Source: Escherichia coli (lineage in GTDB: Bacteria > Pseudomonadota > Gammaproteobacteria > Enterobacterales > Enterobacteriaceae). From it: a stretch of DNA of 3,673 nt. The stretch is taken from the NCBI RefSeq assembly GCF_003334765.1, contig NZ_QOWT01000069.1; one strand, written 5' to 3'. The notes beneath the pieces are model-generated. The model did no database searches. It was not told where the DNA came from and worked only from the letters and a program-made list of their open reading frames with translations. Position 1 is the first letter of the stretch. Each line of letters starts with the position of its first letter. A program made the position numbers and the translations under genes. Below are positions 1 to 3,673 of this stretch, piece after piece.

Positions 1-2
1 AA

Positions 3-191
3 GTTGCGGAACGGATCATCGTGGTCACCGATTCCAGTAAGTTCAATCGTTCCAGTTTACATAAGATCATTGATACTAAACGTATCGACATGATCATTGT
101 TGATGAAGGCATTCCTGCGGATAGTCTGGAAGGCTTGCGAAAGGCTGGGATTGAAGTGATTCTGGTCGGGGAGCTCGCGTCTTCGCTGTGA
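3..191 (+). CDS. DeoR-family transcriptional regulator, C-terminal effector-binding domain (partial; 5' end lies outside the window)
   Basis: Frame 3 is open from the window edge to TGA at 189..191 and translates to [62 protein letters not shown]. The pattern (V-TDSSKF-R-S ... D-IIVD ... G-V) is typical of the C-terminal sugar-phosphate-binding domain of DeoR/GlpR/AgaR-type repressors. Being convergent with a GarD-like gene resembles the E. coli garD...agaR arrangement, but I cannot confirm it is agaR, so no symbol is given. Confidence 0.75.
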
Positions 192-196
192 TTCAC

Positions 197-227
197 TATG
201 CCCGATAAACAAGCGTTATCGGGCATA
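197..227. terminator. Perfect hairpin between two convergent genes (possible bidirectional terminator or mRNA 3'-end stabiliser)
   Basis: TATGCCCGATAA (197..208), loop ACAAGCG, then TTATCGGGCATA (216..227): a 12-bp perfect stem with a 7-nt loop. It starts 5 nt after the DeoR stop and ends 26 nt before the dehydratase stop on the other strand. The downstream U-tract is weak in both directions (AUACAACUUAAUGUAU on plus; none on minus), so calling it an intrinsic terminator is tentative. Confidence 0.4.
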
Positions 228-253
228 ATACAACTTAATGTATGAAGAGAATA

Positions 254-1408
254 TCAGGCCACCGGTGCCGGGTTAAACACTGCCAGCTGGTTATGCAATC
301 CCCATTGATCCGAGAAAGTTTTCTTCTTCCCGCTGGCGACGTCGAGAATAAAGTGGAACAACTTCCAGCCCACCTCTTCAATGGTCTCTTCGCCGGTAGC
401 GATAGTGCCTGCGTTAATATCCATTAAATCAAACCAGTGGTTCGCCAGCCCGGTGCGGGTCGCCATTTTAATGACGGGTACCGCCATCAGGCCGTACGGC
501 GTACCACGGCCGGTCGTAAACACTTGCACGGTGATACCCGAAGCCACCTGTTGCGTGCCACAGACAAAATCGCTGGCTGGCGTCGCGGCGTAAATTAATC
601 CGCGTTTAGTCGGGTGTTGACCGGGCGACAGCACTTCAACAATTGCGGTTTTACCCGATTTAGCAATGGAGCCGAGTGCTTTCTTTACCACGTTGGCGAG
701 GCCGCCCTTTTTGTTGCCCGGCGAAGGGTTGGCGCTGCGGTCGGTTTTGCCCATATCGGGATAGTTATCGTATCAGGCCATCTCTTCGAGCAGACGCCTG
801 CCCACTTCTTCATTGATGGCGCGTGGCGTTAACAGATGAATGGCGTCGCGTACTTCAGTGACTTCGGAGAACATCACCGTTGCGCCGCAGCGCACCAGCA
901 GGTCAGAGTCGTAGCCGACAGCGGGGTTAGTGGTAACGCCGGAGAACGCGTCGCTGCCACCGCACTGCATGCCCACCACCATCACTTCGCCACCGAAGTT
1001 TGGGTTCAGCGCAATATTATGGATGGTGCGAATTGGCACCACGGCGGCCGGTACATTAATCGCTACGCCACAGCCGTAGAGGTGGTTCAAGTCGACCACG
1101 CCGTCGATGCTCGGGTATTTCGGCAGCAGGTCGCGTTCGATAATTTTAACCACGTAGTCCTCAACGTCTGCCATGCAGTGCACGCTGGTGGTAATACCCA
1201 ACAGGTTTTTGGTGCCCACGCTGCCGTCGGCGTTGCGGTAACCTTCAAAGGTGTAATCTTCCTGCGGCGGCAGTGGCTCCGGCACTTTGGTCGCCCGAGG
1301 CAGGGTGTTAAGCGGCGGCGCTTTCGGTAGCGTGACCGTGGATTCGTCGATCCAGCTGCCTTTGGCGACATCGCGTACCGTGTAACCGATAGCGAATGAT
1401 TTCACCAT
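254..1408 (-). pseudogene. garD: UxaA/GarD-family sugar-acid dehydratase (galactarate/altronate dehydratase-like), disrupted: in-frame TGA, 5' truncation, probable internal deletion
   Basis: ORFs 773..1408 (211 aa) and 254..754 (166 aa) lie in the same minus-strand frame, separated only by TGA at 773..775; reading through gives ...[32 protein letters not shown]... Family motifs are present: [63 protein letters not shown]. The C-terminal tail (...[28 protein letters not shown]) matches my recollection of GarD rather than UxaA, hence the tentative symbol. The ATG at 1408 has no Shine-Dalgarno (upstream mRNA is pyrimidine-rich, AACCUUCCUCA-AUG) and an in-frame stop sits 5 codons upstream (1421..1423), so the N-terminal part of the SAF domain is missing. 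Total length is about 377 codons against roughly 495-523 for intact family members. Confidence 0.7.
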
Positions 1409-1570
1409 TATGAGGAAGGTTGTTATCCCTTTTCTGGCGTATTCGTCATTCCATTCGTATCCCCGGTACCGGATGTTTATATCGTACAGTGCCGGTGCTG
1501 GCGTGCTTTCCTGCAGGTCTGCACCGGTTTAACAAACAAAACTTAACAGAGTCTGAAGGAGTAGTATTCC

Positions 1571-2083
1571 GTGCAAATAACCGAAGCGTTACTTTCAGAG
1601 CCGGGAGATATCTGGCGTTTTGTTCAGCAGGCGGTGGACCACTGGCCGCGTCTGCTGGCAGTCCACTTCACGCTCTATTCGGCAGAAGGAAACATCAACG
1701 GGCAACAGATTCATGCATTCTGTACTGCCTTTTACCGACAGGTGCAAGAACATATTACTGAGCGTAATCACACTGCCAGTCCAGCACCGCCGGTGGTATT
1801 ACGCTGGTTGCTGGAACAACATGGAGAAGCAACAATACGATGCCTGTTGCTGCTCAGCCAGGCGAGCATTTGCCATCTGCGGGTCAGTGCCACAGTTGAT
1901 GAAGAATGTTCGCAAGTGGTGGATTTACTGCAACAGACCTGGTCGGGGATAAACGCTGGCGGACAATGTCGGTTGGAAAGCTGTTTTCAGGTTGACCGTT
2001 CAGGTACATTAGATCAGTTCGTTGTGCTAAAGACAACTGTTCAGTCCCTTATGTTACCCGTTATGGCAACAATAGCCAGGTGA
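1571..2083 (+). CDS. Hypothetical protein (170 aa), family not recognised; candidate horizontally acquired orphan gene
   Basis: GTG start at 1571 is preceded by a strong Shine-Dalgarno, AAGGAG at 1556..1561 (9-nt spacer), with an in-frame TAG at 1562..1564 just upstream, so this is the first possible start. The ORF ends with a double stop, TGA TAA (2081..2086). Codon usage is atypical for the flanking genes (ATA three times, plus AGG, CGA, CGG, CTA, GGA). No transmembrane segment or catalytic motif is evident by eye. Six Cys residues, including C-x4-C (QCRLESC). Confidence 0.5.
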   Translation: MQITEALLSEPGDIWRFVQQAVDHWPRLLAVHFTLYSAEGNINGQQIHAFCTAFYRQVQEHITERNHTASPAPPVVLRWLLEQHGEATIRCLLLLSQASICHLRVSATVDEECSQVVDLLQQTWSGINAGGQCRLESCFQVDRSGTLDQFVVLKTTVQSLMLPVMATIAR

Positions 2084-2252
2084 TAATCTGGTACGTTACT
2101 GGCTCTTCCGTTGATTCTTATGGGCTGATAAAGTTTTGTCTGCTGAATTTTTATACGGAATTCTTTTCAGTATGCGTACACGAATTGACTATCTGGCGGA
2201 TAAATACGGTTTTACAGAATTGAATGAATCTCCATATCTTCGTCGGCAGTAG

Positions 2253-3097: not shown

Positions 3098-3100
3098 ATA

Positions 3101-3127
3101 TCAATACGGTTCTGACGAGCCGCTTAC
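3101..3127. repeat. IS66-type terminal inverted repeat (right end)
   Basis: TCAATACGGTTCTGACGAGCCGCTTAC lies immediately 3' of the tnpC stop; its complement starts GTAAGCG, as expected for the outer end of an IS66-family element. Confidence 0.6.
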
Positions 3128-3182
3128 GTCAGCGAACGGCTCCCCCTGCGCAATACACTGCCAACTGAATAACGCATTCCTG

Positions 3183-3209
3183 TCAATACAGCTCTCGCTG
3201 TACACTTAC
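3183..3209. repeat. Degenerate second copy of the IS66-type terminal repeat, same orientation
   Basis: TCAATACAGCTCTCGCTGTACACTTAC aligns without gaps to 3101..3127 at 18 of 27 positions, with identical termini (TCAATAC ... CTTAC; complement starts GTAAG). A third TCAATAC heptamer occurs at 3226..3232 and CAATAC at 3151..3156. Confidence 0.45.
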
Positions 3210-3234
3210 GCTTCTACCAGAGCCATCAATACAA

Positions 3235-3265
3235 TAGAACTCCGTCTAGATTAGACGGAGTTCTA
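3235..3265 (-). terminator. Perfect palindromic hairpin about 70 nt downstream of the acnB stop (candidate acnB terminator or protein-binding palindrome)
   Basis: TAGAACTCCGTCTA GAT TAGACGGAGTTCTA: a 14-bp perfect stem with a 3-nt loop. On the acnB (minus) strand it is followed by UUGUAUUGAUGG, only moderately U-rich, so the terminator call is tentative. Confidence 0.4.
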
Positions 3266-3334
3266 CTTATCCTGCATGAAATCGATATGACAGGCAGCCT
3301 GGTATTAGCTTTTTATACGCAGCACACTGACTTC

Positions 3335-3673
3335 TTAAACCACACTAGGAAAAATCACCCTATCCGCTTTCTCGGTATACTGAGAAAGCTGGTTGAAGTT
3401 CAGATAACGGTAAGTATCAACGGCGGTTTTATCTACCTGCGCCACGTAGGTCTGGTACTCTTCCGGCGTCGGCAGTTTGCCAATCAGCGCCGCAACAGCG
3501 GCCAGTTCCGCAGAAGCCAGGAAGACATTCGCGCCAGTACCCAAACGGTTCGGAAAGTTACGGGTAGAGGTGGAAACCACCGTCGCACCGTCTGCTACAC
3601 GCGCCTGGTTACCCATACACAGGGAACAGCCAGGGATCTCGATACGCGCACCACTCTTACCGAAGACGCTGTA
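3335..3673 (-). CDS. acnB: Aconitate hydratase B (aconitase B), C-terminal end (partial; 5' end outside the window)
   Basis: The minus-strand frame is open from the window edge to TAA at 3335..3337 and translates to ...YSVFGKSGARIEIPGCSLCMGNQARVADGATVVSTSTRNFPNRLGTGANVFLASAELAAVAALIGKLPTPEEYQTYVAQVDKTAVDTYRYLNFNQLSQYTEKADRVIFPSVV. This matches the AcnB C-terminal region as I remember it (GCSLCMGNQARV ... STSTRNFPNRLG ... NQLSQYTEKAD). The last ~10 residues differ from my recollection of E. coli K-12 AcnB (KADGVIFQTAV), which would suggest another species or lineage, but that comparison is from memory only. Confidence 0.85.
   Translation of the reverse strand, partial: YSVFGKSGARIEIPGCSLCMGNQARVADGATVVSTSTRNFPNRLGTGANVFLASAELAAVAALIGKLPTPEEYQTYVAQVDKTAVDTYRYLNFNQLSQYTEKADRVIFPSVV

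Follow-up and report, generated by a model that had tools for sequence, protein, structure and literature searches.

The window analyzed here, a 3673-bp stretch of Escherichia coli DNA, is a seam, both ordinary and real, where two blocks meet that belong to a mobile genomic island of E. coli. The island carries core genes in extra copies that are partly decayed. No function is evident for the seam, and all three of the broken genes found in the window (garD', ECs1377', and tnpC') are dead. How did the two blocks come together? Very probably, the window is the boundary of two blocks within a mosaic, tRNA-linked island, joined by illegitimate deletion and with no involvement of the core garD, agaR, acnB, and cit loci as such. 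A sequence-only reading of the same DNA had listed the 3' end of an AgaR/DeoR-type gene, a garD-like pseudogene, the remains of an IS66 right end (641 bp), and the 3' end of acnB, and all of these are present. It had also correctly described the gene order as nonsyntenic with K-12, in which yacL comes after acnB and 3.1 Mb separate acnB from garD, and several of the genes as inactivated; tblastn and profile matches locate the lesions in garD', ECs1377', and tnpC'. The origin that it proposed for this arrangement, in a rearranged or misassembled core chromosome, fares less well.

Island-borne copies of garD and acnB

Is the joint real? The whole-window search of complete genomes that had been suggested as a check finds the entire 3673 bp, in the same order and with its lesions, in 24 of 5426 complete E. 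coli genomes, colinear at 99.9 to 100% identity. Agreement of this extent across 24 complete chromosomes shows that the joint is no artefact. These chromosomes are independent of one another, and the joint is found in three different chromosomal contexts among them. An assembly chimera at a repeated IS66, the fallback of the sequence-only reading, draws on the repetitiveness of the IS66 family, whose sequences occupy multiple places in many E. coli genomes, up to 25 in one genome. However, 24 complete assemblies, produced by independent projects, share an identical joint, the fragment measures just 641 bp with unique sequence colinear on both sides, and it is single copy in most carriers (the relic is the sole detectable copy of this IS66 type in 19 of 24), leaving nothing to collapse on. 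The chance that the window is chimeric is negligible. The island variant that carries this joint is nonetheless rare, at 24/5426 complete genomes.

The main proposal from the sequence had been that a core-chromosome rearrangement mediated by IS66, whether deletion, inversion, or translocation, put the core garD/DeoR locus beside core acnB in a decaying lineage. The gene order does differ from that of K-12, an IS66 relic does lie between garD' and the acnB 3' end, and three genes are broken. Yet both genes are diverged extra copies (93.7% nucleotide identity to K-12 for the acnB 3' end and 80 to 90% for garD'), while the native joints persist: of 5426 genomes, 5425 have acnB-yacL and 5363 have garP-garD. 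The region also sits inside a tRNA-Phe island with an integrase, its carriers come from many different hosts, and 19 of the 24 have no other copy of this type of IS66. We regard a core rearrangement as very improbable. Strain 746 has two places for window positions 3098-3673. Judging from the collection-wide counts and the number of places per record, the garD-like and acnB genes are additional island copies and the core loci have not moved. What breaks the synteny expected from K-12 is the presence of duplicates carried by an island, and neither rearrangement nor misassembly is responsible.

Does the window show a host-restricted or IS-expanded lineage in continuing decay? The carriers were isolated from humans, dog, gull, turkey, duck, mink, and seawater, and their lesions are identical across these varied sources; the two lesions checked in strain NU14 are shared by its island as well. 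The genome-wide IS66 count lends no support to IS expansion, as the relic stands alone in 19/24 carriers. With lesions fixed in carriers from many hosts, most of them without another IS66 copy, this part of the proposal does not fit. The value of the result is therefore mainly corrective: nonsynteny with K-12 at this place reflects island-borne duplicates. Annotation pipelines and pangenome tools can take such near-identical extra copies (the AcnB2 protein, described below, is 99% identical) for core genes.

The left block: a decayed garD-agaR-kbaZ region and two island genes

The left block (1-2493) combines an extra, decayed copy of the core region garD-agaR-kbaZ with two genes of the island. 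It begins with the 3' end of an island-borne paralogue of agaR, a DeoR family member (1..191, plus strand, coding from position 3, with a TGA stop at 189-191). This end is 97.1% identical to K-12 agaR at the nucleotide level over 1-173, shares 55/57 amino acids with AgaR, and matches NCBIfam PRK09802/AgaR. In matching genomes the full-length copy is intact, and it is annotated as agaR (825 bp) in L001, which contains a stretch identical to the window. Between the convergent agaR copy and garD' lies an inverted repeat forming a perfect hairpin with 12-bp arms (197..227), probably a bidirectional terminator, which occupies the place of prlF-yhaV in K-12. A consensus promoter/terminator scan of the window returned sites no more numerous than in shuffled sequence and missed both of the window's perfect hairpins. 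The direct repeats reported by a repeat finder resemble chance matches.

The galactarate dehydratase pseudogene garD' (254..1408, minus strand) was delimited by tblastn with K-12 GarD and by TIGR03248. K-12 GarD residues 73-522 align to it in a single frame, with a 73-amino-acid gap and one stop. The lesions are thus three: codons 1-72 are absent, an in-frame deletion of 219 bp has removed 73 residues (about 212-284), and a TGA replaces a tryptophan codon. The nonsense codon is at 773..775 (minus strand), where EEMEWYDNY has become EEMA*YDNY with loss of the Trp. The deletion junction, at 972..981, is a 10-bp direct repeat, CCCACCACCA, that is present in both flanks in NU14 and retained as one copy in the window; the window is offset against K-12 by 219 bp. 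Against TIGR03248 the halves reach 318 and 337 bits, both below the cut-off of 730.85, and there is no full-length uninterrupted open reading frame. Toward its 3' end the pseudogene is 90% identical to K-12 garD at the nucleotide level, and toward its 5' end 80%. The NU14 type of island also has the 5' truncation and the TGA, with the same TGA bases, these being the lesions checked there. The truncated garD' meets the upstream region of the next island gene at 1409..1570. A join suggested at about these positions does exist, but it is old: NU14 is colinear across it at 91%, and window positions 1250-1750, which span the joint between garD' and the hypothetical gene, are covered to at least 80% in 496 of 5426 complete genomes.

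How does this copy compare with the core region? In K-12 the order is garD-prlF-yhaV-agaR-kbaZ, and the island copy has the same relative order and orientation. It is 98% identical over agaR and the start of kbaZ, as against the 90% and 80% of the two parts of garD. Unlike the core region, the island copy lacks prlF-yhaV, has a dead garD, and retains only fragments of kbaZ/kbaY.

The first of the two island genes is an intact 170-amino-acid open reading frame (1571..2083, plus strand; WP_001167450.1), recently named in RefSeq as a UCP030791 family putative phage-derived protein. It has no match in Pfam, NCBIfam, or PHROG, and homologues occur in 2237 genomes of the complete-genome collection. 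The second is a pseudogene of the ECs1377 family of "DNA-binding proteins" (2172..2492, plus strand), recognized by NF052300 (E=6e-37, profile positions 13-90 of 190) and by phrog_24243. It is interrupted by a TAG at 2250-2252 and its 3' half is gone. A second join had been suggested at 2084-2486, but there is no joint there, as the sequence is colinear with other islands up to 2493.

The IS66 relic, the seam, and the acnB2-cit operon

The right block consists of positions 2487-3673 and about 11 kb beyond, and it starts with an IS66-family relic (2487..3127, plus strand) made up of a tnpC 3' fragment with the right terminal repeat. Of the element, no more than the final 641 bp is left. The tnpC stop, TAA, is at 3095-3097, and in alignment the terminus ...CGCTTAC at 3127 coincides with the end of three other IS66 copies. 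GTAAGCG is the start of the IS66-family inverted repeat consensus, and CGCTTAC is its reverse complement. The relic is 93.7% identical to a copy in ATCC 25922 that is annotated as tnpC. It matches NF033517 (DDE transposase TnpC) with E=1e-50 over profile positions 227-377 of 387; being a fragment, it scores 172.9 bits, short of the 180-bit cut-off. The relic retains the right terminus and lacks the left end, homology to IS66 beginning within tnpC at 2487; tnpA and tnpB are missing, and the ECs1377-like gene stands upstream in their stead. To the right of the relic, 3128-3135 reads GTCAGCGA, the left IS66 end having been deleted. In sequence the relic is like other IS66-family copies (nearest the RefSeq-labelled ISCro1 family), with a tnpC 3' region 93 to 96% identical to E. 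coli copies. Unlike a full IS66, it comprises 641 bp of about 2.7 kb, lacks tnpA, tnpB, and the left end, and has two deletions, of 12 bp after 2509 and of 1 bp after 3004. It is incapable of transposition.

Where, then, do the two blocks meet? A three-way comparison of the window, NU14, and an IS66 reference places the seam at 2487..2493, a 7-bp microhomology (GGTGTGC) common to the ECs1377-like gene of NU14 and the interior of IS66 tnpC: homology to NU14 stops at 2493, and homology to IS66 starts at 2487. Since the microhomology lies inside tnpC and not at an IS end, the event would have been an illegitimate deletion rather than one mediated by transposase. The junction indicates a joint of this kind, although 7 bp is short and may be a coincidence. 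The earlier idea of an IS-mediated rearrangement survives to the extent that an IS66 relic marks the boundary of two unrelated blocks and a deletion has removed most of the IS; the core genes stayed where they were, and transposase does not appear to have made the joint. A join suggested at 3098-3234 contains a genuine IS66 terminus, at 3127, but what follows that terminus is part of the acnB module, and the blocks are joined at 2487-2493. Another candidate was a single split IS66, whose halves would be the window relic and a 5' relic lying 9 kb to the left in the same orientation (L001 12432-13677). It was ruled out, as the left relic is only 72 to 75% identical to the reference that matches the window relic at 93.7% and the break points of the two do not abut.

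Beyond the relic comes the native 3' flank of a second acnB (3128..3334), which travels with the acnB-cit module and the IS66 end. The gene itself, acnB2, is represented by its last 112 codons and stop (3335..3673, minus strand), identified by comparison with K-12 AcnB: 108/112 amino acids are identical, as are 93.7% of nucleotides over 3312-3673. In L001 the full acnB2 encodes 865 amino acids without an internal stop, 96.8% identical to K-12 at the nucleotide level and 99.1% at the amino acid level, and the open reading frame matches full-length AcnB (TIGR00117). Facing the convergent IS66 relic, acnB2 has its own hairpin, a perfect inverted repeat with 14-bp arms at 3235..3265, 70 nt downstream of the stop. 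It is absent from the K-12 acnB 3' flank and is probably the acnB2 terminator, for all that the simple consensus scan gave no flag. In contrast to the core acnB-yacL arrangement, the hairpin and IS66 end replace yacL, and citG upstream replaces the gene's own promoter region.

The order across the right block is GntR / lactonase-MFS-citCDEFXG-acnB2. Window positions 3054-3673 are 99.4% identical to strain ES1, in which the left neighbor is different. The IS66 right end and flank are indeed common to ES1/ST38 and SWHEFF_58, with the IS cut at window position 3054 and a different left neighbor. It follows from the different cut and neighbor that the insertion of IS66 by acnB2 predates both joints.

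How might the window have been assembled? The left block would be the end of a widespread malX/malY island module, and the right block an accessory operon that had received an IS66 immediately past the end of acnB2. An illegitimate deletion at 7-bp microhomologies would have joined them; to judge from the junction sequence, it took away the left ~2 kb of that IS66 together with the 3' half of the gene like ECs1377. Once formed, the composite would have spread as a unit to pheV, to pheU, and to a third context at yjhGHI/sgcR. The intermediate that this predicts, in which a full IS66 would adjoin acnB2 and have an uncut ECs1377-like gene upstream of it, was not found in the genome collection, where the acnB2 flank is shared only by ES1, ST38, and SWHEFF_58, each with a shorter IS66 stub. 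With no intermediate in the collection, we infer the order of events.

Could IS66 activity have come first, either as composite transposition of the acnB2-cit operon or as IS66-IS66 homologous recombination, with microhomology trimming later? In ES1, an 11.4-kb operon block does lie between inverted IS66 sequences, one a 74-bp end and the other a longer, frameshifted copy, and this second copy has the window's 1-bp deletion along with many single-nucleotide polymorphisms (95.7% identity). IS66 right ends also recur beside homologues of the 1571-2083 open reading frame: in PK-F-10132 the homologue follows one, and ES1 offers another case at 68% identity. On the other hand, the right ends point inward, the outer ends are missing or truncated in every copy seen, and the present seam falls within tnpC and not at an IS terminus. 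We consider this sequence of events somewhat doubtful; it is a possible earlier step toward, and not an alternative to, the joining of two island blocks by illegitimate deletion. In L001, of the window's own lineage, the far side of the operon block carries ISEc38.

Conserved on a mobile island, the adjoining lactonase-transporter-citrate lyase-aconitase operon is a more interesting lead than the seam, and it would be a candidate for a trait that gives some extraintestinal lineages of E. coli a new carbon source. Searches of the literature for an island with acnB2-cit, and for a cluster of lactonase, citrate lyase, and aconitase genes, yielded no relevant description. Tentatively, the operon might serve the catabolism of a tricarboxylic-acid lactone as a hitherto undescribed unit that is mobile horizontally, formed by recruitment or overwriting of core cit and acnB genes and mobilized by IS66. 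One speculation is that the substrate is isocitrate lactone or a hydroxycitrate lactone. After uptake, a LigI-type lactonase could open the ring, AcnB2 could isomerize the product, and citrate lyase could cleave it to acetate and oxaloacetate. The E. coli cit and acnB parts could have been recruited from resident core genes or overwritten via gene conversion, and the IS66 relic of the window could be the scar left by the mobilizing element.

Island context and related islands

The window follows tRNA-Phe, an integrase, IS relics, and malX/malY, in that order. In MS14384 (NZ_LR130562) and B-JRPT-4119, tRNA-Phe is followed by a tyrosine recombinase; these were not found within 20 kb in Santai. 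Relics of IS3, IS21, IS66, and ISL3 surround the window in L001. Depending on the strain, the composite lies beside yqgA/speC (pheV), beside dsbD-cadC (pheU), or beside yjhGHI/sgcR, genes that lie near leuX in K-12. The window thus has the attributes of a genomic island: adjacency to a tRNA gene and an integrase, variable presence among strains, and remnants of mobility genes.

The closest relatives of the left block are in the malX/sfa-iro island of UTI89/NU14-type strains. Its contents (malX, malY, an "enterotoxin" gene, the agaR copy, garD', the hypothetical gene, and ECs1377') are 91 to 98% identical to the NU14 island at 1.08-1.11 Mb, which probably corresponds, by its coordinates and sfa/iro content, to PAI-UTI89-serX (PMC7545054). 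The same source describes pheV as a hotspot of island integration (PMC7545054). Overall, the region resembles the tRNA islands of extraintestinal pathogenic E. coli at pheV, pheU, leuX, and serX, with their malX "PAI marker" module, in having tRNA-Phe, a tyrosine integrase, IS relics, and pseudogenes. It differs from PAI-UTI89-serX in that, from window position 2487 onward, the sfa-iro part is replaced by the IS66 relic and the acnB2-cit operon, and in that this variant occupies three chromosomal contexts in its 24/5426 genomes.

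Composition of the window

The junction is very probably a seam between two blocks of a mosaic island that were joined by deletion; there is less certainty about the order of events. The layout of the window was worked out from an ORF list, NCBIfam profiles, and a comparison of its translations with K-12 proteins, and it confirms the inventory of elements in the sequence-only reading. The left block opens with the 3' end (62 codons) of a gene for an AgaR-type DeoR repressor (3-191, plus strand; 55 of 57 amino acids identical to K-12, and 97% nucleotide identity to K-12 agaR over 1-173). 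It is followed by a galactarate dehydratase (garD) pseudogene (254-1408, minus strand), an intact 170-amino-acid ORF (1571-2083, plus strand) for which Pfam, NCBIfam, and PHROG all gave no match, and an ECs1377-family gene (2172-2492, plus strand) that carries a TAG at 2250-2252 and breaks off near position 90 of the 190-position profile. The right block begins with the right-hand 641 bp of an IS66-family element (2487-3127, plus strand, by alignment to IS66 copies), continues with a unique flank (3128-3334) containing a perfect hairpin with 14-bp arms at 3235-3265, and reaches the last 112 codons of acnB (3335-3673, minus strand; 108 of 112 amino acids identical to K-12 AcnB).

What had been read as a sugar-acid locus is a decayed, island-borne extra copy of the gar/aga junction, as the adjacency of agaR and garD is that of the core chromosome. 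The K-12 order is garD-prlF-yhaV-agaR-kbaZ; the relative orientations of garD and agaR are the same in the island copy, from which prlF-yhaV is missing. Identity to K-12 is 98.2% for the stretch from agaR through the intergenic region into kbaZ (its first 70 bp), and for garD it is 90% in the 3' part and 80% in the 5' part. Translated comparison places the pseudogene in one reading frame against GarD residues 73-522, with three lesions. (i) Codons 1-72 are absent. (ii) An in-frame deletion has removed 73 codons (219 bp), its junction at 972-981 being a single copy of the 10-bp direct repeat CCCACCACCA, both copies of which are present in strain NU14. (iii) At 773-775, a Trp codon has become TGA, with identical bases in NU14.

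At the place of the K-12 prlF-yhaV toxin-antitoxin pair, window 174-244 has a spacer of 62 bp that contains a perfect hairpin (197-227, from an inverted-repeat search). This arrangement may predate the toxin-antitoxin insertion, or the pair may since have been lost. On the 5' side of the island agaR copy, all that is left of kbaZ is the initial 70 bp (98% identity with K-12; 19049-19118 of L001, the MS14384 stretch that holds the window) and a kbaY-like aldolase is reduced to a fragment (76% identical; L001 18780-19118). The island formerly contained more of the aga region.

The seam inside IS66 tnpC

An island of NU14 is colinear with window 1-2493 at 91-98% identity, but there the ECs1377-like gene runs on uncut and is followed by the sfa operon, whereas the window copy is cut. 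By its coordinates and sfa/iro content, this island corresponds to the PAI-UTI89-serX listed in PMC7545054. The older joint between the garD pseudogene and the ORF (window 1250-1750) is covered to at least 80% in 496 of 5,426 complete genomes, among them that of an E. coli Nissle derivative, and is therefore ancient and part of a widely distributed island module.

IS66 homology starts at 2487, and the seven bases at 2487-2493, GGTGTGC, are common to the NU14-type gene and the IS66 interior. They are the mark of an illegitimate, microhomology-mediated deletion and not of a transposition end. The relic lacks everything left of tnpC codon ~227 (profile numbering) and, aligned with other copies, has lost 12 bp after 2509 and 1 bp after 3004. 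On the right it ends in ...CGCTTAC at 3127, the base where three independent IS66 copies end, with flanks diverging beyond; IS66-family terminal repeats start with GTAAGCG.

From 3054 onward, the sequence matches that of ES1/ST38 and SWHEFF_58 for 11.44 kb at 99.2% identity, a stretch that comprises the last 74 bp of IS66, the flank GTCAGCGA..., acnB2 (the island-borne acnB), and the whole operon beyond. These genomes differ from the window in where IS66 is cut and have an unrelated left neighbor. The IS66 insertion next to acnB2 is therefore part of the operon block and older than both joints.

In ES1/ST38, the operon block lies between IS66 sequences in inverted orientation, right ends inward (23484-24620 and 12001-12074 of the ES1 stretch, L004), hinting at an IS66-bounded mobile unit, a putative former composite element whose outer ends are missing. 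The longer ES1 copy, at the far end of the block, has the same 1-bp deletion and frameshift as the window relic. At least two other islands, those of PK-F-10132 (85% nucleotide identity; L006 8619-9355) and ES1 (68%; L004 23176-23484), have a homologue of the 170-amino-acid ORF just past the right end of an IS66, and the family occurs in 2,237 of the 5,426 genomes. This suggests a recurrent association with IS66 or a favored IS66 target region.

How did the blocks come together? The two are distributed independently, the IS66 terminus is tied to the right block, the microhomology seam lies inside tnpC, and the genes that resemble core genes are extra copies. An IS66-associated step, either transposition or IS-IS recombination, would first have put the operon block near the ECs1377-like gene, and a deletion would next have taken out ~2 kb of IS66 and the 3' half of that gene. 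The seam is probably without function; acnB2 is convergent with the IS66 relic and has its own hairpin. As part of a mosaic island, such a seam is ordinary and belongs to a class already well known.

Carriers, core genes, and chromosomal contexts

The search of complete genomes that the sequence-only reading had called for found the whole window, colinear, 99.9-100% identical, and with the same lesions, in 24 complete E. coli chromosomes (from humans, dog, gull, turkey, duck, mink, a chicken farm, and seawater). Misassembly is thereby excluded for practical purposes; moreover, a probe of the IS66 3' part plus unique flank hits a single genomic place in 19 of the 24, leaving assemblers without a repeat to collapse there. 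Identical lesions in all carriers and a single-copy relic also speak against the reading of a host-restricted or IS-expanded lineage whose genes are still decaying. The lesions are old, fixed scars of island assembly.

Nor have core genes been relocated: the native acnB-yacL joint is found in 5,425 of the 5,426 genomes and garP-garD in 5,363; the window acnB and garD are extra copies. The 3' end of acnB2 is 93.7% identical to K-12 acnB at the nucleotide level, with similarity ending ~25 nucleotides beyond the stop codon, and carrier strain 746 has two places for window 3098-3673; by these comparisons the window acnB is a second copy. In full (865 amino acids in MS14384), it is 96.8% identical to K-12 in nucleotides and 99.1% in amino acids. 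Identity along the gene (L001 23335-25932) is uneven, at 94% to 99% per 200 bp. Of the earlier interpretation, the IS66 scar and the deletion thus stand, while relocation, lineage decay, and misassembly fall away.

The composite (the left IS66 relic and everything up to the right end of the window) occupies three chromosomal contexts in the three carriers examined. In MS14384, the island starts at the tRNA-Phe gene beside yqgA/speC (pheV), and the window is reached 14.5 kb in, after a tyrosine integrase, IS3/IS21/IS66 relics, a putative enterotoxin gene, malY- and malX-like genes, aldolase fragments, and an intact agaR copy; to its right follow the complete acnB, citG-X-F-E-D-C, an MFS transporter, an amidohydrolase, and a divergent GntR regulator. 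B-JRPT-4119 has the composite between dsbD/dicD and cadC, at pheU, the other gene for tRNA-Phe, and O157:H16 Santai has it beside yjhGHI/sgcR (genes that lie near leuX in K-12), with no tRNA or integrase within 20 kb. The operon past the window is complete in two of the three. In B-JRPT-4119, it stops within citE, where an autotransporter fragment adjoins (L010 28918-29451), and so it is not kept in every carrier.

The neighboring accessory operon

This accessory operon (L001 23128-34494; from window 3128, ~11 kb rightward) is a more interesting object than the seam and merits separate study. It comprises a divergent GntR gene and lactonase-MFS-citCDEFXG-acnB2, and a literature search found no publication on such a cluster. 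The amidohydrolase is a LigI-type lactonase (PF04909; PDB 2ffi at 1e-67; 4-sulfomuconolactone hydrolase profile at 8e-40), and the operon may serve a tricarboxylate lactone pathway. The island cit genes (L001 25958-31189) are 97.8% identical to the K-12 cit operon over 5,207 ungapped bases, with homology restricted to coding parts and ending at gene boundaries, and compared to K-12, citT is exactly replaced by acnB. Near-identity bounded by genes, together with this swap, suggests that core genes were recruited or that gene conversion occurred between island and core copies.

Related clusters exist outside E. coli. That of Citrobacter amalonaticus (L014) has the E. coli architecture, with GntR divergent from lactonase-carboxylate carrier-citCDEFXG-acnB; that of Klebsiella spallanzanii (L013) is similar, but has acnB on the other side and gave no citX match. 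Their proteins are 47-84% identical in amino acids to those of the E. coli operon, and their carrier is of the MatC/CitMHS type, whereas that of E. coli is an MFS protein. Intestinirhabdus alba has GntR-lactonase-MFS only, at 76-89% amino acid identity.
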